Source: a virus. Taken from it: a DNA stretch of 44,263 bases. Below the pieces are notes generated by a model. The model ran no database searches and had not been told where the DNA came from. It saw only the letters and a program-made list of their open reading frames with translations. The stretch lies in the IMG/VR virus record IMGVR_UViG_3300037506_000026, positions 1-44,263 of that record; one strand, 5' to 3'. The first letter of the stretch is position 1, and every line of letters starts with the position of its first letter. Shown piece after piece: positions 4,981 through 38,158 of the stretch. A program made the position numbers and the translations under genes.

Positions 4981-5195
4981 CGCGGAACCTCCTCCCTGAT
5001 CTTCACGCTTTTATCTGCTGGCTCAAGCCTGATGCCCTTGCTATCCACTTCTGAAACGACCCACCATTCGCCAGCCAGAGGGTATTTCGCCCCCTTCGAG
5101 ATAGAGATGCTTCCCTCCACATTGAACGTGCTGGCGGTCATTTTGGCGATCCATTCCAGAGGGATCGTGAGCTTAATGCCTGAAAAAAGTTTCAT
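4977..5195 (-). CDS. Hypothetical protein (72 aa) within the glycosylation cassette
   Basis: ATG at 5195 forms an ATGA overlap with the upstream stop and has GGGAG 6 nt upstream. The longer track start at 5300 would overlap the upstream gene by 108 nt. Confidence 0.5.
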   Translation of the reverse strand: MKLFSGIKLTIPLEWIAKMTASTFNVEGSISISKGAKYPLAGEWWVVSEVDSKGIRLEPADKSVKIREEVPR

Positions 5196-6283
5196 TCCCA
5201 ACTCCCTTTGATGGCCGGAGGCAGATTCAATATCTCGTCCAGGTGCCAGACTACCGTACGGCCTTCCTGAAAAGTCTTCTTGCAATTCTCGGCGGCCCAT
5301 TCAGCGAGGCTGGCTTGCTTCACTCCCCACGGCTGAAAAATGTTCCACGTAGAACAAGTGGTGAAGTCCAACTCCTTGAAGGCTTGGATGATGTTCAGGA
5401 GCGACTTAGCATAGATCGCAAGCTCAGGGTCGGTGCGGTAGGAAAGCTCCTTGGAACCTTCCGGCGTCTTCATGTCGGGTTCCGAGGCCGTCCCTTGAGG
5501 TTTAAGGAACGAACGGGAGACGCGCTCGTCGTTGTCGTAGAGGGGCGTGGATGCCTTGGGAACCCACTTGTCGCCCTCCTTGACGTAATCTTGGGCGCGG
5601 TAACGCCACCCGTCGCCGTCCTTGGCATAGCACAAGTCCATTCCGACCCCCGCCACCTTCTTGCACCCCAACACCATCGCCAACTGGACAGCCATGTTTC
5701 CTACCGTTCCGGCCGATGGTATCTGGCCGATGTCGGGGTAGATGTATGGCAGAAGTTTCTCAGAAAATTCGTCGGTCGTGTGCCAGTGATTGAAAAAGAG
5801 TTTCGTCCCAACCCACGATTTGATGACGTCTGGGTGGGCGCAGGAATCGAACACCATCGGCACTCCCGTCATCAGTCCATCCCACAAAACGGATTGCTCC
5901 TTCTTGCAGTCGAACGAGATCACGAGATCGGGCGTAATGTTGTTGATCCGAAGCGGCTTGAAGGCCGCATCAGTGGCGATGATGACGGCCTTACGCTTGA
6001 GCGATCTCAGCGTGTCGAAATTGGCGTCGAGGCTTGGCCCAACCCCAACGACGACGGCAGGCATCCCTTCGCAAGAGCCCGAGAGGAAGCGGACGCCTCT
6101 GGACTTCGACACGAGCGCGTAATTCTGCGCGGCGTGCTTGGCCCATCGGTGCAACCACGAATCGGTTGCCTTGACGTCCGCTCCCCCCTTCTCTGAACGA
6201 AAAGCTCTCACGCCGGATCTGACTGGAAATCCGGCCTGCTTCAATTCTGCGACTTGGTTCTCTAATGTTGACGATTGGCTCAT
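5192..6283 (-). CDS. DUF115 / MptE-like, motility-accessory-factor (Maf)-like putative glycosyltransferase
   Basis: 363 aa from the ATG at 6283 (AAGGAG upstream). Carries the DUF115-type block AVVVGVGPSLDANFDTLRSLKRKAVIIATDAAFKPLRINNITPDLVISFDCK and later GTVGNMAVQLAMVLGCKKVAGVGMDL. Confidence 0.6.
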   Translation of the reverse strand: MSQSSTLENQVAELKQAGFPVRSGVRAFRSEKGGADVKATDSWLHRWAKHAAQNYALVSKSRGVRFLSGSCEGMPAVVVGVGPSLDANFDTLRSLKRKAVIIATDAAFKPLRINNITPDLVISFDCKKEQSVLWDGLMTGVPMVFDSCAHPDVIKSWVGTKLFFNHWHTTDEFSEKLLPYIYPDIGQIPSAGTVGNMAVQLAMVLGCKKVAGVGMDLCYAKDGDGWRYRAQDYVKEGDKWVPKASTPLYDNDERVSRSFLKPQGTASEPDMKTPEGSKELSYRTDPELAIYAKSLLNIIQAFKELDFTTCSTWNIFQPWGVKQASLAEWAAENCKKTFQEGRTVVWHLDEILNLPPAIKGSWE

Positions 6284-9760: not shown

Positions 9761-10341
9761 TATGCGTTCACCTCATAACCACCAAAGTTCGCTCTCCACG
9801 TTGTGCTGGTTGCCGCCGAAGGAGTCACGACAACACGGATAACAGTTCCGGCGGGAATAGGGACATTCAAAGCAACGGGCGAATCGTTTGATGGAGCGTG
9901 GAACCTATCGACTGTTATTATTTTAGTCCCACTTGGAGTTTCAGCGCTCATGGAGCCAAGGAATATAGGGTTCACATTTCCAGGAAGCGATGTCCTGTAC
10001 CCGTTCATCTGCACATATTGCAAATAAAAAATTTTCCCCGATGTTACGGTGTACGTTAGAACCACTTGATCGGCGGTCGTCGCTGTCGTAATAAGCGATC
10101 CCGTCTTAAAGACTGGCGTTCCAGTCGCCGGTGGTTGGACAGTGACAGGAATGGAAGGCTGATCGGATGCCATTGTAAAGGGAACCGAATTGGCCATCGT
10201 CTTTTGACCAAGCGTTAGAGCAGAACCTCCGACACGAAGAATGTCTGCCGGCGTGTTTCCCTCGGCAGTCACATTGGCATCAATGCCTGTTGGCCCCTCG
10301 ATGACGGTGCGGTTCTTCTCGATGTTCGGCAAATCAGCCAT
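9760..10341 (-). CDS. Hypothetical structural-module protein carrying the shared C-terminal IPAG-x-VI-x-V domain (paralog 1)
   Basis: 193 aa. C-terminus NVPIPAGTVIRVVVTPSAATSTTWRANFGGYEVNA resembles the C-termini of the 11919..12320 and 10687..11661 products. Confidence 0.6.
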   Translation of the reverse strand: MADLPNIEKNRTVIEGPTGIDANVTAEGNTPADILRVGGSALTLGQKTMANSVPFTMASDQPSIPVTVQPPATGTPVFKTGSLITTATTADQVVLTYTVTSGKIFYLQYVQMNGYRTSLPGNVNPIFLGSMSAETPSGTKIITVDRFHAPSNDSPVALNVPIPAGTVIRVVVTPSAATSTTWRANFGGYEVNA

Positions 10342-17135: not shown

Positions 17136-18869
17136 TTACGCGGCCCCATCTGCTTTGCCTCCGACTCCCGCTTTTTCTTTGGCCTTGTCAGCCATGAATT
17201 TTTCTTTTTCTTCCGGCGTCATGGTTTTCATCAGGTCATTCATCTCAGCGTCCATTTCCGCTTCGTCTCCGAACCCCGCCTGTTTTCCGAGCAGAGGGTT
17301 CCCGTCGAGTTCCGCTTCGTCTTCGACCTGTTTCTGTTTGCGGACCTCCTCCGCGTAGTCGTAACCGAGAGCGGCCGATGCGGTCGGGTCGGCGATCCAT
17401 CCGTTGGATCGAGCAACGGCCAGCGCATCGGTATGAGATTTGATGTCGCGATGAACAATATCCGGCCACGACATATCGCATCCGAAGAACATCTCGGACG
17501 GCATTTCCATCTTCCCATTCGGCATGATCTCAGCCAACAGTTTTTTCTTCGGATCTTCTTTCGGTTCTTCGTCTTCTTCGCCCGTGGCGTCAACGTCCTC
17601 GCCGTCTTCCATGTCCTCAGCTTCGCCAAGGTCGCGAACGCTTTTGAGTTTGTTGATGAATTCCTCATCGTTTGGAGCTTCGAGGACGCCACCATCTACG
17701 GCGGTCTGAATGACCATCTTGTAGAGGCGTCCCAGGTGGTATTCGAGGAAAATCTGCCACGACTGAATCGCTTTGACGAACGGGCTTTCGGCCACGAGAG
17801 TGCTTGCGAAGTTGGCGTTGGACGCGTCACCCAAAATGTATTCGGGGAGGTTCGTCCCTGCGGCCATCGAGAGTTTGATGTTGCGCCCGTCTTCCTTCAC
17901 GTCCGAGGCGTTGATGTTCGGGGCTTCCATGCGGTAAGTAACGCCGGGGCCTTCGGTGATCATCGTGCCGCCTCGGATCATCTGCTTCTTGGTTTCGCCG
18001 GACGCGGTGTTGGTGGCGTTGGGGATTTTGTTGGCGAGGTTGGCGACTTCCGTCGGAGTTCCTTCGACCTTCTTGATCAACACAATGGCCGAGCGCATCT
18101 TGTTGAGCAGGATTCGGTTTTCAAGCCACTGCTCGTAGTGCTTCATCAGCGTGAGGATGGACTGCATGAACGGCTCGCCGCGCTTCTGATCTGAGTCTGC
18201 GTTGAGTTTGATGTGGAGCATATTCTCGGCTTTGATGAATCGGAATTCGTTTTCGTTCGTGCGCTTCTGGACGTGGTAGCCGATCACTTTCTCGATGTCC
18301 TCTGGGTCGGTCTGAATTCCGTTCTTGTTCGCGTCGTCCACCATCGCTCCAGGTGTGACGGGGGCGCGAACCAAAAGCGGATCGACGAAACGGATAGTCA
18401 TCTTTCCGGTTTTCTTGCCGTCTCCGTCGGTGTCAAATTTCTCGATGAAAACTTCTCCGTCACGGAAAAGTCTTTTGACGATCTCGAATTGCTTGAGTTG
18501 CATTTTGTTGCGGTCAGCCGTCCAGAATTCCCGCCACACATACCACACCAGAGGGTCTTCGCTCTTGGGGGTCATGGAGAGTCCCTTGCCCATGATGTAG
18601 TTCACCATCGTCGCAATGATGCCGTGCGCTTCGGCATCCCATCGTTCAAACTCTCTGGATTTGCGGATTACTTCGAGCTGGTTGGATTGGAGATGTCCCT
18701 TCTCGCGGTCGGTTACTCCGTACATTCGGGCCCAGCCGTCGCGGTCGGGGCGGTCGATAACAATCTGTTGCGCTTCTTCGAGGATGGATTCTTGAAGTTC
18801 CATCGACGTGCGCTTGTATTTCAATTCCGCGTTTTTGCCTCTGTACCAGTTCCAGATCAAATCTATCAT
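17136..18869 (-). CDS. Portal protein
   Basis: 577 aa directly after terL (ATGA overlap). Acidic C-terminal tail with the sequence character of the portal family. Confidence 0.85.
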   Translation of the reverse strand: MIDLIWNWYRGKNAELKYKRTSMELQESILEEAQQIVIDRPDRDGWARMYGVTDREKGHLQSNQLEVIRKSREFERWDAEAHGIIATMVNYIMGKGLSMTPKSEDPLVWYVWREFWTADRNKMQLKQFEIVKRLFRDGEVFIEKFDTDGDGKKTGKMTIRFVDPLLVRAPVTPGAMVDDANKNGIQTDPEDIEKVIGYHVQKRTNENEFRFIKAENMLHIKLNADSDQKRGEPFMQSILTLMKHYEQWLENRILLNKMRSAIVLIKKVEGTPTEVANLANKIPNATNTASGETKKQMIRGGTMITEGPGVTYRMEAPNINASDVKEDGRNIKLSMAAGTNLPEYILGDASNANFASTLVAESPFVKAIQSWQIFLEYHLGRLYKMVIQTAVDGGVLEAPNDEEFINKLKSVRDLGEAEDMEDGEDVDATGEEDEEPKEDPKKKLLAEIMPNGKMEMPSEMFFGCDMSWPDIVHRDIKSHTDALAVARSNGWIADPTASAALGYDYAEEVRKQKQVEDEAELDGNPLLGKQAGFGDEAEMDAEMNDLMKTMTPEEKEKFMADKAKEKAGVGGKADGAA

Positions 18870-20407
18870 CCGAGGAAACCTCCCACGTTGGAGTTGTCGC
18901 CGATTTCTGCGAAGTCAGCTTCTTCGGCGAGTTCGGCCTGATCGACGAAGCGTGCTTGGTTGAAGAAGTTTATGGCTTGAGTCATGGCGTCCACTTGGTC
19001 GTTGATCTCTCCGTCGGTTCCCTTGAACGCGGCGCACTCCTCGATGAAGTCGTTGACCCAAGGATTCTGATTCGGTTCGGGGAGGTGGACGTTTCCGGCT
19101 TCAACGATTGGCGACGCGGCCTGCGCCCGTGCGATCTTGGATCCCTGCGGTTGGATCGGAATGAGGCCGGAGATTTTTTTCTGCAAGACCGATATGATCG
19201 CTGGCCCGTTGGCTTTGTCTTCGATGAGGTGGCCCGTGGCTCCCTGATTCTGAGCGGCCATGATGACGACCATCTGCAACGCTTCTGAGAAATCACACCG
19301 CTCGCGCATCTGCCGGATCAAGTAATAGTCCGCTCCGCGCTTACCCCAAAGTTGTCCGACGACGAACGATCCCTCTTTGGTTTCCTTGAAGCTCATGTCC
19401 CACGAAGTGATCATCACATCGAAGCCAGACGGAAGGACGGAGTAGAATTTCCACCACGAGCGTTTGAGAATGTTGCCGATTTCTGAGGACGGGTTCTGCT
19501 GGCCTTGGGCCGCGAATGTGCGGGTACCCATTGCTTTTTTCAGTTCATCCACTTCAACCTGGCCGTGCCGTCCTTCGTTGAGGAGGTCGCCATCGTTCCG
19601 CACGATTCTTTTCTTCGAGATCGGAAATTCGATGACGGTCTTGCCTTCAGCGACCAGCGGCAGAACGACGTGGTGCCAGCCGGATTCGTTTTTGAGGATG
19701 TGGCCCGTTAAATCCTGGGCGTGAGTGCGTTGCTCGACGACGACGCGGATGCCAGTCTTTGGGTTGTCGAGCCGCGAGGAGAGGACGCTCGCGTGCATGG
19801 TTTGCATGTGATAGCGCATTGCTTCTGATTCGGCTTCGTCGGGTTTCAGCATGTCGTCCTCGACGATAACGTCTCCGCCTTTTCCTGTCAGCGTTCCGCC
19901 GACGGAGGTGGCGATCATGTGGCCGCGCGCTGTGTTTTCGTATTCGTGCTTTTGGTTTTGGTCGTCCTGGATCGTGACGAGGCCGCCCCAGTTATCTTGG
20001 AACCATTGCGACTCGATGACGCGCCGGCGTGCGAGCGAATGCTTGACGGAGAGGCCGGATGAGTACGAGCAGAATATCCAGCGCATGCTGGGCTTTTGTG
20101 TCCATGACCAGACGGGCCAGAGGATGGTCACGATGTTCGACTTCCCGTAGCGCGGGGGCATGTTGATCAAAAGTTTTTTGATCTCTCCGCGCGTGACGAG
20201 TTCCAAATGCTCGCAAAGGTAACCGACATACCACGACTCCATTAGTGGGTTGGCCGGTTCGAGGATGGGCCACGCTTTGCGAATAAATTCGGGGAAGGAG
20301 TACAGGGGCGAGATGAGTGATTTTGAAAGTCGTTTGAGTCCGTCTACGCGAGGTTCCGTGAGGTCGATGGCGGTGGAGTATTTTGACGCCGGGAATGTTT
20401 CGATCAT
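18866..20407 (-). CDS. terL: Terminase large subunit
   Basis: 513 aa. Walker A-like INMPPRYGKSN, Walker B-like GGDVIVEDD, and a C-terminal nuclease-type region. Confidence 0.9.
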   Translation of the reverse strand: MIETFPASKYSTAIDLTEPRVDGLKRLSKSLISPLYSFPEFIRKAWPILEPANPLMESWYVGYLCEHLELVTRGEIKKLLINMPPRYGKSNIVTILWPVWSWTQKPSMRWIFCSYSSGLSVKHSLARRRVIESQWFQDNWGGLVTIQDDQNQKHEYENTARGHMIATSVGGTLTGKGGDVIVEDDMLKPDEAESEAMRYHMQTMHASVLSSRLDNPKTGIRVVVEQRTHAQDLTGHILKNESGWHHVVLPLVAEGKTVIEFPISKKRIVRNDGDLLNEGRHGQVEVDELKKAMGTRTFAAQGQQNPSSEIGNILKRSWWKFYSVLPSGFDVMITSWDMSFKETKEGSFVVGQLWGKRGADYYLIRQMRERCDFSEALQMVVIMAAQNQGATGHLIEDKANGPAIISVLQKKISGLIPIQPQGSKIARAQAASPIVEAGNVHLPEPNQNPWVNDFIEECAAFKGTDGEINDQVDAMTQAINFFNQARFVDQAELAEEADFAEIGDNSNVGGFLG

Positions 20408-29371: not shown

Positions 29372-29779
29372 CTACGTTCGTTCTTTAGTGGGTCGAATTT
29401 CGAGGCGGGTTCCGCCCTTTGGATTCTGCTTGTCCCATCGGCGATGGCAGGGCTGGCATAGCCAGCGGACTTTTAGCGGTTGGCTGTAATCGTAATGCGC
29501 GCCCTCGATGGGAATTCCAGTTCGGCGGCATTCCTCGCATTCGGTTGGGCGGTGGATATGGCCCTTGGCGATGTGGTAGCGAAGCAGGCTGGACGCCGTC
29601 CCGGCCTTAGCCGTGTGGACGTGAAATCTTACGCGCCCCGTAGCCTTTGTTAAGTACCAACATTTCTTTGAACAAAATCTTCGACCGAGATGATCCAACG
29701 GGCCGAATCGATTTCCACATTTTTCACAATTTCTAAATGTCTGTGGTTTCCGATTTCCTCCCTGTTGTCCTGGCCTCAT
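29372..29779 (-). CDS. HNH-type endonuclease / zinc-finger protein
   Basis: 135 aa. CEKCGNRF...CSKKC, then CEECRRTGIPIEGAHYDYSQPLKVRWLCQPCHRRWD. Confidence 0.65.
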   Translation of the reverse strand: MRPGQQGGNRKPQTFRNCEKCGNRFGPLDHLGRRFCSKKCWYLTKATGRVRFHVHTAKAGTASSLLRYHIAKGHIHRPTECEECRRTGIPIEGAHYDYSQPLKVRWLCQPCHRRWDKQNPKGGTRLEIRPTKERT

Positions 29780-31182
29780 AATTTCTGCGGCTTAACTCCC
29801 GTGAGCTTCTCGAACCTCTGAAGGATAACATCGCAATACGCGCGGTCGAGTTCGATGCCGTAGCATTTGCGGCCCGTGGATTCGGCTCCGAGGAGCGTGG
29901 TGCCGCTTCCTAGAAACGGGTCGATCACGATCTCGCCGGGCAGGCTTGAGTTTTGGAGCGCGCGGCGCGCCAGCTCCACCGGTTTTTGGGTGGGGTGTTC
30001 GTAGTCCGACTCGCGGGATACCTCCCAGAGGTCGTCCTCCCCTTTGCTGGAGGCCAAAATTAACGCCTCCCCTTGAGCCAGGCGAACGTTTCGCACCTTT
30101 TTAGGGGTAGGGCCTGGGCCGATGAAAATCGTCGAGCCTTGGCCATCCTGGACGTTTATACCGTGTCCGAGCGTCATGCTCTGGCCGGTTTTGGTTTTGT
30201 AGCCGAGTCGCCAGACGGTTGATTCGTTCCGCTGGCCGAAGTAGCGGGGCTTCTGTCCTTCCTTGGCGGCGTAGAAACACGGCTCATGCGCCCAGCGGTA
30301 ATCGCTCCAGCCCAGCACGAAGCTCGGCTTAGCCCAGATGATGTATTGGCGTTCCATAATTCCGGCGGCCTTAAGGGCGTAGGAGAATTCGTCGCGGGTC
30401 GTGGTGGCGTGCCAGACGTACCAGGCGGCGTCGTCCGAGGCGTGGAGCATGGCCTGCTGGAACACGGGTTTTAAGAGATCGACGATCAGCCGGTCGCCGG
30501 TCTTTTCGTCGTTCTGGATTTTGGCGAATTTGTCCGTGGTCGATTCGTAGCTGATCCCATACGGCGGGTCGGTGAAGATGAGGTTGGCTTGCGCACCGTC
30601 CATAAGCGCGGCCCATATGTCCGGGTTCTTGGCGTCACCGCAGATGAGCCGATGGTTTCCCAACGCCCACATTTCCCCGGTGCCAAATTCTTTGCCCGCC
30701 GCGATCTCCGGCTTCACGGCGTCGTCCAGGGCCTTCTCGCTGGTTCCTTCCACTTCGTTCATGAGCGCGCGCGCGGTCGCGTCGTAACCGGTTAGGTCAA
30801 GATCGAGCGAGCTTTTCATGAGTTCTTGCATCATCGATCCCACGGCGTCGCCATCGATGTCAGCGAGTTCGGCGATCCGGTTGTCGGCCAGCAGGTCGGC
30901 CAGCTCGACTTCCTCGTTTACGTATTCCTGGTAATCGACCGGCACGTGCGTCACCAGCATTTTCTTAGCGGCCATCAGGCGCGCGTGGCCGGATGTAATG
31001 AATCCTGATCGCTTAGACACCGTGATCGGCTTGCGCCATCCCTGGGCTTTGATGATCCGGGCGAGCAGTTCCACTTGCTCATCCGAGTGTCGGTTCGGGT
31101 TACGCGGGTGGGGCTTGAGGTTGCCCACCGGCTCGATGGCGTTGTGGGAGCAGTGAACGTCGAGGAAGTCGGCCTTGGCCAT
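29776..31182 (-). CDS. ParB-like nuclease domain fused to an N6/N4 DNA methyltransferase
   Basis: 468 aa. N-terminal LKPHPRNPNRHS...ITSGHARLMAA (ParB/Srx-like). Catalytic LIFTDPPYG, and a C-terminal SAM-binding block VIDPFLGSGTTLLGAE. Confidence 0.85.
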   Translation of the reverse strand: MAKADFLDVHCSHNAIEPVGNLKPHPRNPNRHSDEQVELLARIIKAQGWRKPITVSKRSGFITSGHARLMAAKKMLVTHVPVDYQEYVNEEVELADLLADNRIAELADIDGDAVGSMMQELMKSSLDLDLTGYDATARALMNEVEGTSEKALDDAVKPEIAAGKEFGTGEMWALGNHRLICGDAKNPDIWAALMDGAQANLIFTDPPYGISYESTTDKFAKIQNDEKTGDRLIVDLLKPVFQQAMLHASDDAAWYVWHATTTRDEFSYALKAAGIMERQYIIWAKPSFVLGWSDYRWAHEPCFYAAKEGQKPRYFGQRNESTVWRLGYKTKTGQSMTLGHGINVQDGQGSTIFIGPGPTPKKVRNVRLAQGEALILASSKGEDDLWEVSRESDYEHPTQKPVELARRALQNSSLPGEIVIDPFLGSGTTLLGAESTGRKCYGIELDRAYCDVILQRFEKLTGVKPQKL

Positions 31183-36021: not shown

Positions 36022-36582
36022 CTATTTGAAATTGCGCCCTAATATCAGGGCGATCCACCAGAAGATGCGATCGGCGTCTCTCTTGGCTCCGATGTATCCC
36101 ATCCAGAGTTGGCCGTCACGATCTTCTTTTGTTCCGTCCGGGATCGGTTGAGCCCCGGTGTTGTATTTGTGAAACGAGAAAAACAGCGGCCACTGGATGG
36201 CCCAGTGCCATGCACTCCAGTATTGAATCCGGGAGAGGTAATAACCAGGATTGGCTTTTATGAATTCGTCCGGCTCCATACCACTGGCCACGTCCGGTTT
36301 CCCGTCGGCCTCGTATCGCCACGATCCGACGCCCTTGCGCGCGATGAGGACGATCGGCGTTTCGCGCCATTTGCGCATGAGGATGAACGGCGGCCACATC
36401 GAGAACGCAATTCCTTTTGGCGAGCGCGGGCCGAAGGCGTCCCAGTGTTTTGTGGCTTTGTTCCACCGCTTCCAGAGGTTGCCGAAAAATCCTTTGTACT
36501 GACTGTCGTCTGGAAACGCCGCCTCGACTTCCTCTTTGGTGTTGAGGTGTTCCGGGAAGGCCGATCTGTCACCGATGCCCAT
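36022..36582 (-). CDS. Trp-rich hypothetical protein (186 aa), possibly membrane-associated
   Basis: ATG at 36582 follows AAAGGAGGAAACAGA and overlaps the cyclase stop by 14 nt. 17 Trp, with hydrophobic patches IAFSMWPPFILM, WHWAIQWPLFFSF and IFWWIALILG. Confidence 0.55.
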   Translation of the reverse strand: MGIGDRSAFPEHLNTKEEVEAAFPDDSQYKGFFGNLWKRWNKATKHWDAFGPRSPKGIAFSMWPPFILMRKWRETPIVLIARKGVGSWRYEADGKPDVASGMEPDEFIKANPGYYLSRIQYWSAWHWAIQWPLFFSFHKYNTGAQPIPDGTKEDRDGQLWMGYIGAKRDADRIFWWIALILGRNFK

Positions 36583-37206
36583 TCTGTTTCCTCCTTTCTT
36601 CACAGCAGTTATACGACCACAGCGCGTGCAAGTCCTCTTGCTCGACGCCATCGAGCGCGGTGCGGTGCGGGTTCACTTTCTTAAATTCGACGTGATCTTT
36701 TTGACCGATGATGTCCTTTACGCTCTCATGGCAGATGAGCGGAACGTCCGGGCAGACGCGCAGGAGCCGGGCCGCGAGGTTCATCGCGTATCCGACAAAA
36801 TCTGTTTCACCGTCGAGCGTTTTGATTTTGAAAACTTGGCCGGCGGCGATGCGTACACGAAAACCGTCGGGCTTAGGAAAACTGGGGATCGCTGAGATGA
36901 TCTGATTAACTTCTTCGGCAAGGGCGTGAAGCTCGCAGAGAAATTTGACGGCAGTGTGGCAGTTGTGACCTTGTACCAGCGTGGTGATCGCGAGGAATCC
37001 GTCTCCCAGGTATTTGACGAAATGCTCTGAGGCGAACCGGTAACGGGCAAATACGGCGTAGATGTCTTTGACGAATTTCTCGAACGTCTCCGGGTCGCGC
37101 GATGCGATTTTCGCATACGATCCGAAGCGTGTGACGTCCGCAAATGCGCAGATGACCCTCGCTTTCTCGATGCGGAGTTTGCGCTTTTTTTTGATTGCTT
37201 GTTCAT
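36569..37206 (-). CDS. Class III nucleotidyl (adenylyl/guanylyl/Pycsar-type) cyclase homology domain protein. Needs a -1 shift at the A8 run, or a CTG start at 37213.
   Basis: The frame of the 71-aa ORF is open up to 37236. It reads ...VICAFADVTRFGS...KYLGDGFLAI...FRVRIAAGQVF...DFVGYAMNLAARLL..., which are the four hallmark CHD blocks. The ATG at 37206 is in the neighbouring frame. Confidence 0.7.
37185..37192 (-). promoter_or_regulatory. A8 homopolymer / A_AAA_AAA slippery heptamer joining the ATG frame to the cyclase frame
   Basis: Minus strand reads ATG AAC AAG CAA TCA AAA AAA AGC. A -1 slip or one extra A gives ...TCA AAA AAA AAG CGC AAA CTC = MNKQSKKKRKLRIEKARVICAFADV. Confidence 0.6.
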
Positions 37207-37226
37207 GTGTCAGATCGCTTCTCCAG

Positions 37227-37673
37227 TTAGGGTTTCATCATTCCGTTGGCGGTGAAGAGCATCTTCGCAATCCAAAACAACGCACCAACAAAAACCACGC
37301 CGATGCTCCCCTTGTACAGGGTATCGAGGCGGTTATCGAATCCGTTCAAGCGTTTCTCCAGCGCGTCATCTTCTTTTTTGTCGGACTCTTTTTTGTTGCG
37401 CATCTCTGCTTTCACTTCGCCGAATGACACCATGAGTTCGTCGACTTTCTTCGATGTTTCTGTGAGCGTTTTTGAAACGCCGAATTCAAATCGTTCCTTA
37501 AGCTGGCCCTGTTGATTGAGCATCAGCTCCATTTTGTTTTCGAGCTTGAGTTGTTCTTTTAAGAACGACTCCATCCGATCCTTGACCTCGTTAATTTCCC
37601 GGCGACGATCGGAGTCCAGTTGGAACACCACGTTCTCTGTGACGGCGGATGGCTGTTTAATTTCTTCGCTCAT
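37227..37673 (-). CDS. Coiled-coil protein with a C-terminal transmembrane anchor (148 aa), lysis-region accessory
   Basis: Long charged helix, then SIGVVFVGALFWIAKMLF at the C-terminus. Overlaps the endolysin stop by 4 nt. Confidence 0.55.
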   Translation of the reverse strand: MSEEIKQPSAVTENVVFQLDSDRRREINEVKDRMESFLKEQLKLENKMELMLNQQGQLKERFEFGVSKTLTETSKKVDELMVSFGEVKAEMRNKKESDKKEDDALEKRLNGFDNRLDTLYKGSIGVVFVGALFWIAKMLFTANGMMKP

Positions 37674-38158
37674 ACACCGATCCTCTTGGCGAGACTCAGC
37701 ACCCGGAACGACCAGTTGATGGCGAACACGAGCAGGTTCGGCTTGGCCGCCATGAGCCGAGCGTATGCCGCGAGCCGTTCGGCCAGAGCCAGACGCATCG
37801 CACGTGGTTGCGCCGCGTGGGCCGCCGCAAGGGTCTTTGGCCCGATGATGCCGTCATCTTTAACTTTCAGAGCGCGTTGCATGATACAGATCGCCGTCTG
37901 CGTCCCTTGGTTCACGGCGCAGTCGAAAAGCGAGATCGCAAACTCGCGCGGGAGTTCGTCGCACTTGCAAGGTGCCCAGTAGTCGCGCTTATAAATATCC
38001 ATCGCCTCCGCCACCGTCAGGTTGCGGATGTCCAGGTTCGGGTACGCTTTTTTGCTGATCCCGAATTTGGTCACGCCACCTGGATCGTTCGGGTCGTCGG
38101 TCAGCCCGCCCTCTTGCTCAAGTACAAATGCGATCGCGTCATCCCAGTCAGTTCTCAT
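37670..38158 (-). CDS. Endolysin: glycoside hydrolase family 108 plus a peptidoglycan-binding (PG_binding_3) domain
   Basis: From the ATG at 38158: DDAIAFVLEQEGGLTDDPNDPGGVTKFGISKKAYP (the GH108 EGG...DPGG.T..GI signature), then LKVKDDGIIGPKTL. Confidence 0.8.
   Translation of the reverse strand: MRTDWDDAIAFVLEQEGGLTDDPNDPGGVTKFGISKKAYPNLDIRNLTVAEAMDIYKRDYWAPCKCDELPREFAISLFDCAVNQGTQTAICIMQRALKVKDDGIIGPKTLAAAHAAQPRAMRLALAERLAAYARLMAAKPNLLVFAINWSFRVLSLAKRIGV

Follow-up and report, generated by a model that had tools for sequence, protein, structure and literature searches.

How can a gene be translated when its reading frame holds no canonical start codon ahead of the domain that it encodes? 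The question is raised by a locus on the minus strand of IMG/VR virus record IMGVR_UViG_3300037506_000026, analysed here from position 1 to 44,263 (44,263 nucleotides (nt), referred to as the window), where the coding frame of a nucleotidyl cyclase lies beside phage lysis genes. The frame 37213..36569 encodes a genuine class III nucleotidyl cyclase domain, and the gene is very probably real and expressed, with a conserved non-canonical start. The ends of the contig (1-127 and 44137-44263) share 100% identity over 127 nt, and the window is a circularly closed contig of 44,136 base pairs (bp), a complete phage genome with genes for a lambda-type portal, a terminase and a Phage_capsid_4 major capsid protein. 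The start region is compared among six sequences, namely the window and five close relatives for which DNA is available, each from independent metagenomes (L001, L002, L007, L008 and L010). The reading frames and signals at the locus are as follows.

36569..37213, minus strand: reading frame of the cyclase, 214 codons that begin at the in-frame CTG and are closed by a TGA stop, with the class III cyclase homology domain.
37221..37224, minus strand: Shine-Dalgarno (SD) sequence GGAG, just 3' of the TAA of the upstream gene, with the CTG 7 nt on and the ATG at 37206 14 nt on.
37211..37213, minus strand: in-frame CTG, candidate weak start codon of the cyclase, invariant in the six sequences and part of the block YCTGA.A..TG.A.
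37204..37206, minus strand: ATG in the +1 frame relative to the cyclase, 7 nt 3' of the CTG; ATG in five of the six sequences and GTG in one (L008).
37185..37192, minus strand: run of eight A (A8), with an in-phase A_AAA_AAA on which ribosomes in the ATG frame could enter the cyclase frame by a -1 shift; it is read as KKK in the latter.
37169..37171, minus strand: ATC (Ile), which is ATG in L001 and L002, CTC in L008 and ACC in L007.
36767..37138, minus strand: span of the six catalytic residues, whose register matches CyaB in the HMMER alignment.
36781..37206, minus strand: Ser/Arg-rich open reading frame (ORF) of 141 amino acids in the +1 frame, starting at the ATG at 37206.
36569..36784, minus strand: ORF of 71 amino acids in the cyclase frame, from the mechanical ORF list.

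On the minus strand the start region reads, in order, ccc TAA, ct, GGAG, aagcgat, CTG, acac, ATG, aac aag caa and tcA AAA AAA Agc gca. The original prediction, which was made from the letters and their ORF list, placed the GGAG, the CTG, the ATG, the A8 run and both ORFs correctly on this strand, and the long open frame that it described upstream of the 71-amino-acid ORF is there, with a translation identical to the quoted peptide, uninterrupted over the 221 codons that follow a TGA TGA pair. In the window, the cyclase frame has no ATG, GTG or TTG 5' of the codon for the first metal Asp (37138..37136), so that the absence of a canonical in-frame start is confirmed, and it is common to relatives too.

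The assignment of the domain to the class III cyclases, proposed from the order of its sequence motifs, is upheld by its fold, its family profile and its catalytic residues. These three lines together settle the assignment, even though Pfam alone is marginal. Homologs of the window protein were found at E = 2e-102 to 1e-10, and the close ones (2e-102 to 1e-37) place the frame far beyond chance; one of these is labelled class 3 adenylate cyclase by the Joint Genome Institute (JGI). An exhaustive profile search gave 435 cluster representatives, most of which are about 200 amino acids long and stand alone. The search with PF00211 that had been suggested as a check gave a divided answer: the window protein by itself scores under the cut-off (E = 1.5e-3, 18.6 bits against 21.9), but 30 of the 56 members of the family alignment match, and the profile built from these 56 sequences matches Pseudomonas aeruginosa CyaB (3r5g) over its full length (E = 3.2e-12) together with about 50 other cyclase chains. 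NCBIfam gave no match. The check by structure prediction bore the assignment out. The AlphaFold (AF2) model is confident, with a predicted local distance difference test score (pLDDT) of 84.9 and a predicted template modelling score (pTM) of 0.80. Foldseek against the PDB returned 148 matches at E<=1e-3, the best 50 of which are all class III adenylyl or guanylyl cyclases at E~1e-8, with template modelling (TM) scores of 0.5-0.7 for class III cyclase matches.

The window protein carries all six canonical catalytic residues. In the family alignment both metal Asp residues are present in 56 of 56 sequences, the Lys in 51, the Asp/Glu in 53, the Asn in 46 and the Arg/Lys in 46. The positions in the window are given below, together with an additional Arg.

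37138..37136, minus strand: metal Asp of AFADV, aligned to a CyaB Asp.
37015..37013, minus strand: substrate Lys of KYLGDG, from the family alignment.
37003..37001, minus strand: metal Asp of KYLGDG, aligned to a CyaB Asp.
Within 36767..37138, minus strand: Arg in FRVRIAAG, from the family alignment.
36802..36800, minus strand: substrate Asp of DFVG, from the family alignment.
36781..36779, minus strand: transition-state Asn of MNLAAR, from the family alignment.
36769..36767, minus strand: transition-state Arg of MNLAAR, from the family alignment.

The Lys/Asp specificity pair suggests that ATP would be the substrate, and the enzyme is probably homodimeric. A family-specific element, HESVKD...GVExEDLxxLW (also written GVDxEDLxxLW), is found at the C-terminus. 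The cyclase ORF is intact in all six sequences. In pairwise Nei-Gojobori comparisons the proportion of synonymous differences (pS) is 0.66-0.87, which is saturated, against a proportion of nonsynonymous differences (pN) of 0.16-0.33, and pN is far below pS also where both genes of a pair lack a start (window-L008, window-L007 and L007-L008). As judged from these substitution patterns, the cyclase genes are under purifying selection. The intact predicted catalytic residues and the purifying selection together indicate that the protein is a functional, phage-borne, stand-alone class III cyclase.

The start region of this gene is unusual, and it is so in most of the relatives as well. From the preceding in-frame stop to the first metal Asp, the window, L007 and L008 have no in-frame ATG, GTG or TTG. 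L010 has none in its intergenic leader, its sole in-frame ATG being located 27 codons 5' of the CTG, inside the preceding gene. A usable canonical in-frame start is thus absent from four of the six sequences. An in-frame ATG just 5' of strand beta-1 (MQR[TE]RI[IV]CAF) is confined to L001 and L002. This ATG has no good SD, and the aligned residue is I in the window, L in L008 and T in L007; from the alignment, it appears to behave as an internal residue at an I/L/M/T position rather than as a dedicated start.

The conserved feature of the region lies further upstream. The block YCTGA.A..TG.A is present in all six sequences, and nowhere else outside the domain are invariant columns so closely packed. 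The CTG is in the cyclase frame in every sequence, at 7, 9, 6, 10, 9 and 7 nt from the GGAG, and the codon that follows it is AAA in five of the six. The ATG (GTG in L008) invariably begins 7 nt after the CTG, hence in the +1 frame, and is 13-17 nt from the GGAG. Genes of the window with a strong SD (GGAGG or AGGAGG) have spacings of mostly 4-11 nt, and the combined start motif occurs only once in the window. The leader from the CTG to strand beta-1 has 19-20 codons in five sequences and 14 in L010. All differences in leader length are multiples of three, which ties the start block to the cyclase frame. The A run is A8 in the window and A5-A7 in the relatives. No promoter or terminator that could be the cause of the conserved block was found, and a readthrough fusion with the upstream gene was ruled out, as L002 and L008 are the only sequences in which the cyclase and the upstream gene share a frame. 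Homologs at a greater distance begin in the ordinary way: with an SD and ATG in L003, a TTG overlapping a TGA in L004, and ATG in L006 and L011. In L010 (2720-2745) the GGAG of the SD is predicted to pair with a CUCC directly downstream (GGAGUUCCCUCC); such pairing would hide both the SD and the first base of the CUG, and it is not kept in other relatives.

The conserved initiation block would then consist of the GGAG, a spacer of 6-10 nt, the in-frame CUG, 4 nt, the out-of-frame AUG and an A-rich leader. Within it, translation of the cyclase may well start weakly at the CUG (37213), a reading that we favour only tentatively. Initiation at this codon, which stands at an ideal distance from the SD, would yield Met-THEQAIKKKRKLRIEKARVICAFADV... 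and would keep the enzyme at a very low dosage, while the nearby AUG in the +1 frame would act as a competing or decoy start. The ideal spacing and the CTG are kept in all six sequences, four of which offer no usable canonical alternative. A single change would turn the CTG into a strong start, and its retention suggests selection for weak expression. Taken as a whole, the start region looks like a conserved low-output expression device and not like an error.

Several observations weigh against a start at the CUG. CUG initiation in Escherichia coli reaches about 0.1-1% of the AUG level, and CUG starts occur very rarely in natural bacterial genes. Conservation is equally strong for the CTG and for the out-of-frame ATG/GTG. 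The T and G of the latter, and the A two bases on, are fixed while the residues read in the cyclase frame vary (N/H/S and E/G/A), the opposite of a coding constraint, which points to selection on the ATG/GTG as a start codon. In L008 a second GGAG lies 8 nt 5' of the GTG. Conservation of the CTGA could instead be due to its TGA, a stop in the +1 frame. Both of the longest A runs (A8 and A7) belong to start-less genes, and the whole comparison of the start region rests on six sequences.

Some of these points count in favour of the main rival route, in which ribosomes start at the ATG at 37206 and then shift by -1 on A_AAA_AAA (37192..37186), or in which RNA polymerase adds one A. This alternative is possible but, on balance, doubtful. 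The phasing of the A8 run had been described correctly: it reads tcA AAA AAA Agc in the ATG frame, and a -1 slip would give MNKQSKKKRKLRIEK..., with most ribosomes staying in the zero frame and making the 141-amino-acid Ser/Arg-rich protein as a by-product. The heptamer is in phase in three sequences, as A_AAA_AAA in L008 and the window and as A_AAA_AAC, the IS1 motif, in L001, and in all six sequences an ATG or GTG stands in the frame that needs a -1 shift. Besides the fixed T, G and A and the well-placed GGAG of L008, the sole substitution seen, ATG to GTG, keeps the start function. The +1 ORF is longer than expected under synonymous permutation in the window, L002 and L008 (P=0.01-0.04), and +1 stops are not depleted genome-wide. 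IS1-type A_AAA_AAC sites function without a stimulator, and AAAAAAA is slippage-prone (PMC4066793).

Against the slip stands the position of its start codon, since the spacing of 13-17 nt between SD and ATG in nearly all relatives is outside the usual 4-11 nt of this phage. The heptamer is absent from L002, L007 and L010, and the start-less ones among these, L007 and L010, offer no more than A5 runs and tetramer sites; in-phase A_AAN sites are, moreover, an automatic result of AAA Lys codons in the cyclase frame. Single-sequence folds, RNAalifold and folds from the SD to the leader gave no conserved frameshift stimulator, and the folding z-scores downstream (-0.39 in the window) are non-significant in all sequences but L008. 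The SD lies 29 nt 5' of the A run, and no SD-like stimulator is present 10-14 nt 5' of it. The zero-frame product varies from 28 to 141 amino acids and is not conserved beyond the closest trio, and the invariant in-frame CTG is left unexplained. As to transcriptional slippage, which typically involves a homopolymer of at least nine A or T, the runs are shorter, with A8 in the window and A5-A7 in the relatives. By eye, a candidate long-range stem of 5-6 bp can be drawn between bases 3' of the A run and the TCTGCGC of the ICA codons. Either of the routes named in the original prediction, the A8 slip and the CTG, may be in use, with the evidence leaning to the CTG, which is invariant and has kept its SD spacing; the A8 run is not conserved, is missing from two other start-less sequences, and no stimulator was found for it. 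CUG initiation and slippage may both contribute, and the output should be low either way. It is conceivable, though less likely than not, that a clade of phage accessory cyclases is obligatorily expressed through a conserved dual-start block, in which the weak CUG makes the enzyme while the out-of-frame AUG diverts most ribosomes into a long +1 frame that is kept clear of stops, or supplies the cyclase frame by -1 slippage on an A run.

A third explanation concerns the ATG itself. It supposes that a genuine overlapping gene, whose product is basic, disordered and Ser/Arg-rich, begins in the +1 frame at the ATG at 37206, that the ATG is conserved for this reason, and that the cyclase is started separately, which is compatible with initiation at the CUG. 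The +1 ORF has 141 codons in the window, 103 in L002, 102 in L008, 85 in L007, 64 in L001 and 28 in L010. Medians from synonymous-codon permutation are 11-33, against the observed 141, 103 and 102 in the window, L002 and L008 (P=0.01-0.04). The other genes of the window show 262 stops in the +1 frame against 241 expected, hence no depletion. In the cyclase genes the total number of +1 stops is normal and all of them are confined to the 3' part of the gene. In distant homologs that start normally, the +1 frame is stopped early. Among the window, L002 and L008, codon identity at conserved residues falls from 0.62-0.68 in the 5' part to 0.30-0.50 in the 3' part, and the 5' half alone shows raised +1-frame identity, with 38-42 of 80 where the null is about 27.

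An overlapping gene is nevertheless unlikely. The ORF shrinks to just 28, 64 and 85 codons in L010, L001 and L007, and pairs that include L007 or L001 show no excess of +1-frame conservation. The signal changes gradually and shows no boundary, a pattern which mosaic recombination could give, and the three significant cases are related to each other. The composition of the product is typical of off-frame translation, no Pfam match was found for it, and it is not called in any public assembly. The +1 signal could mean that ribosomes do move through the +1 frame, whether to translate an overlapping gene or because stops soon after the start are selected against, or it could stem from mosaic ancestry; the 141-amino-acid ORF itself is probably an unusually long off-frame reading of the cyclase gene.

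It is very improbable that the cyclase is a decaying or silent pseudogene, left untranslated by a change of ATG to ATC at 37171..37169. The ATG of L001 and L002 is indeed ATC in the window, there is no canonical start, and the window protein alone falls under the Pfam cut-off. The frame of 214 codons is, however, intact with all catalytic residues, even pairs of start-less genes with saturated synonymous sites have a pN far lower than their pS, the start-less state is shared by four of six lineages with saturated synonymous sites, and the upstream block is conserved. Intact frames, retained catalytic residues and pN well below pS make a recent pseudogene unlikely.

Least credible of all is the suggestion that the true sequence is A9, with the ATG at 37206 in frame and the split due to a homopolymer error in assembly or sequencing: the A8 run does sit exactly where one extra A would restore an ATG-started gene of 212 amino acids, but the five other sequences, from independent samples, keep the +1 ATG/GTG and the in-frame CTG, so that A9 would make the window the odd one out; L007, L008 and L010 also lack a usable in-frame start, two of them with A5 only; the contig closes on itself through 127 nt shared by its ends, as is typical when short reads are assembled by de Bruijn graph; only the 71-amino-acid fragment appears again in a separate, 44,166-bp Logan assembly of this phage; and the A9-type protein of 212 amino acids is absent from a collection of 15 billion proteins. 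A further near-identical Logan genome has 44,294 bp.

The cyclase gene is flanked by the following genes.

37670..38158, minus strand: GH108 endolysin with PG_binding_3 (Pfam E=4e-26; PHROG endolysin E=2e-44).
37227..37673, minus strand: upstream gene for a 148-amino-acid coiled-coil protein with a hydrophobic C-terminal segment, which follows the endolysin and has 37% identity to its L013 equivalent.
36022..36582, minus strand: downstream gene for a 186-amino-acid protein, with AGGAGG, 7 nt and ATG, overlapping the cyclase end by 14 nt.

Beyond the 186-amino-acid gene come one gene for a membrane protein and one for a VRR-NUC nuclease. L001, L010 and L011 repeat the succession of endolysin, coiled-coil protein and cyclase, and the distant L004 has an equivalent order of coiled-coil protein and then cyclase. 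In relatives without the cyclase, such as L013, homologs of both flanking genes are only 8 nt apart, implying that the cyclase is an optional accessory insertion. In L001 an uncalled holin-like ORF with two hydrophobic stretches (9841-10097) lies between the endolysin and the cyclase, and the public call P0003 (264 amino acids) extends the cyclase 5' through it. The 186-amino-acid protein has 62 homologs in diverse phage contigs, most of them without a cyclase, and no Pfam, PHROG or PADLOC match; it is, judging from these homologs, a widespread phage family that is not tied to the cyclase, and functional coupling of the two genes was ruled out on this ground. A two-gene system of the Pycsar type was likewise rejected. 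The neighbouring genes gave no Pfam or PADLOC match to a cyclic-nucleotide-binding effector with a transmembrane or TIR module, and with no such effector nearby the locus is not a Pycsar-type system.

Elsewhere in the window there are a gene with an MptE-like domain at 5192-6283 on the minus strand (6-hydroxymethylpterin diphosphokinase-like, PF01973, E=2e-34), an unusual phage cargo, and an N6/N4 DNA methyltransferase of 468 amino acids at 29776-31182 on the minus strand (PF01555, E=4e-30). In L001, a related phage of 45 kb, the ParB_N, Tet_JBP and TAGT genes are adjacent (17314-20268), which suggests thymidine hypermodification of its DNA. Searches of cultured phages by megablast and tblastn gave no match, no further close relatives were found in GTDB genomes or IMG/VR, and a metagenome scan gave distant ones only.

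The 435 cluster representatives describe a phage-specific family of minimal class III cyclases, located repeatedly just after the endolysin. The literature searches on phage class III cyclases and phage CUG starts returned nothing directly relevant, and no functional study of the family among the papers searched. Cyclic nucleotides made by the phage could alter host signalling or interfere with cyclic-nucleotide immunity. One clade of the family would represent a conserved case of non-canonical phage gene expression, by CUG initiation, by -1 slippage or by both. If the dual-start block does operate as proposed, it would set a built-in limit on the dosage of a cyclic-nucleotide synthase deployed at lysis, and standard gene callers would systematically miss or truncate genes of this kind. 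The public annotation already has a blind spot here. Calls are truncated at the N-terminus, being cut at an internal M or V (P0002 at 'MRDIY', P0004 at 'VRELY', and P0153), or extended into the upstream gene (P0003 and P0219), or missing; for the phage of the window, the 71-amino-acid tail is the sole piece of the cyclase among the public gene calls.

Among known systems, the closest enzymes are the bacterial homodimeric class III adenylyl and guanylyl cyclases (CyaB 3r5g, Mycobacterium avium Ma1120, Rv1625c and Spirulina CyaC), which have the same fold and the same order of catalytic residues; the family profile matches CyaB over its full length, and the window protein has Foldseek TM scores of 0.6-0.7 and shares the Lys-Asp specificity pair with the members that use ATP. 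Unlike them, it has no regulatory or membrane domain, it has RVRIAAG in place of R-x-G-x-H-x-G, with the second Arg invariant, and the phage family has the C-terminal HESVKD...GVDxEDLxxLW element of its own. The phage enzymes are also encoded beside lysis genes, and in one clade they have a basic N-terminal leader and no canonical start. The Pycsar PycC proteins, which are cCMP and cUMP synthases of anti-phage defence, are similar in that both are stand-alone cyclase-homology-domain proteins of about 200 amino acids, and the cUMP synthase 7r65 is among the fold matches of the window protein. The PADLOC model PDLC00734 is weakly matched by 24 of the 56 relatives (best E=1.2e-9), no more strongly than the generic PF00211, whereas the window protein itself has no PADLOC match, and its gene lies in a phage lysis cassette rather than in a bacterial defence island.

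For the route into the frame, two kinds of precedent can be considered. The -1 sites of IS1 (A_AAA_AAC), of the IS3 family and of dnaX (A_AAA_AAG) are in-phase heptamers like those of the window, L008 and L001, and the orfB of insertion sequences is a downstream frame without a start codon of its own, as is the window cyclase. In contrast to the insertion-sequence sites, the candidate slip site of the window would come no more than five codons past the start, no conserved function attaches to the zero-frame product, a stimulator is lacking, and the heptamer is missing in half of the relatives. The non-AUG starts of low expression, such as the AUU of infC and the rare CUG starts of translation table 11, have in common with the cyclase a near-cognate codon at ideal SD spacing, an A-rich +2 region and the retention of the codon although one change would give a strong start. 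The cyclase differs from these known cases in that no autoregulatory logic is known for it, and in that an out-of-frame AUG, 7 nt downstream, is conserved along with its CUG.

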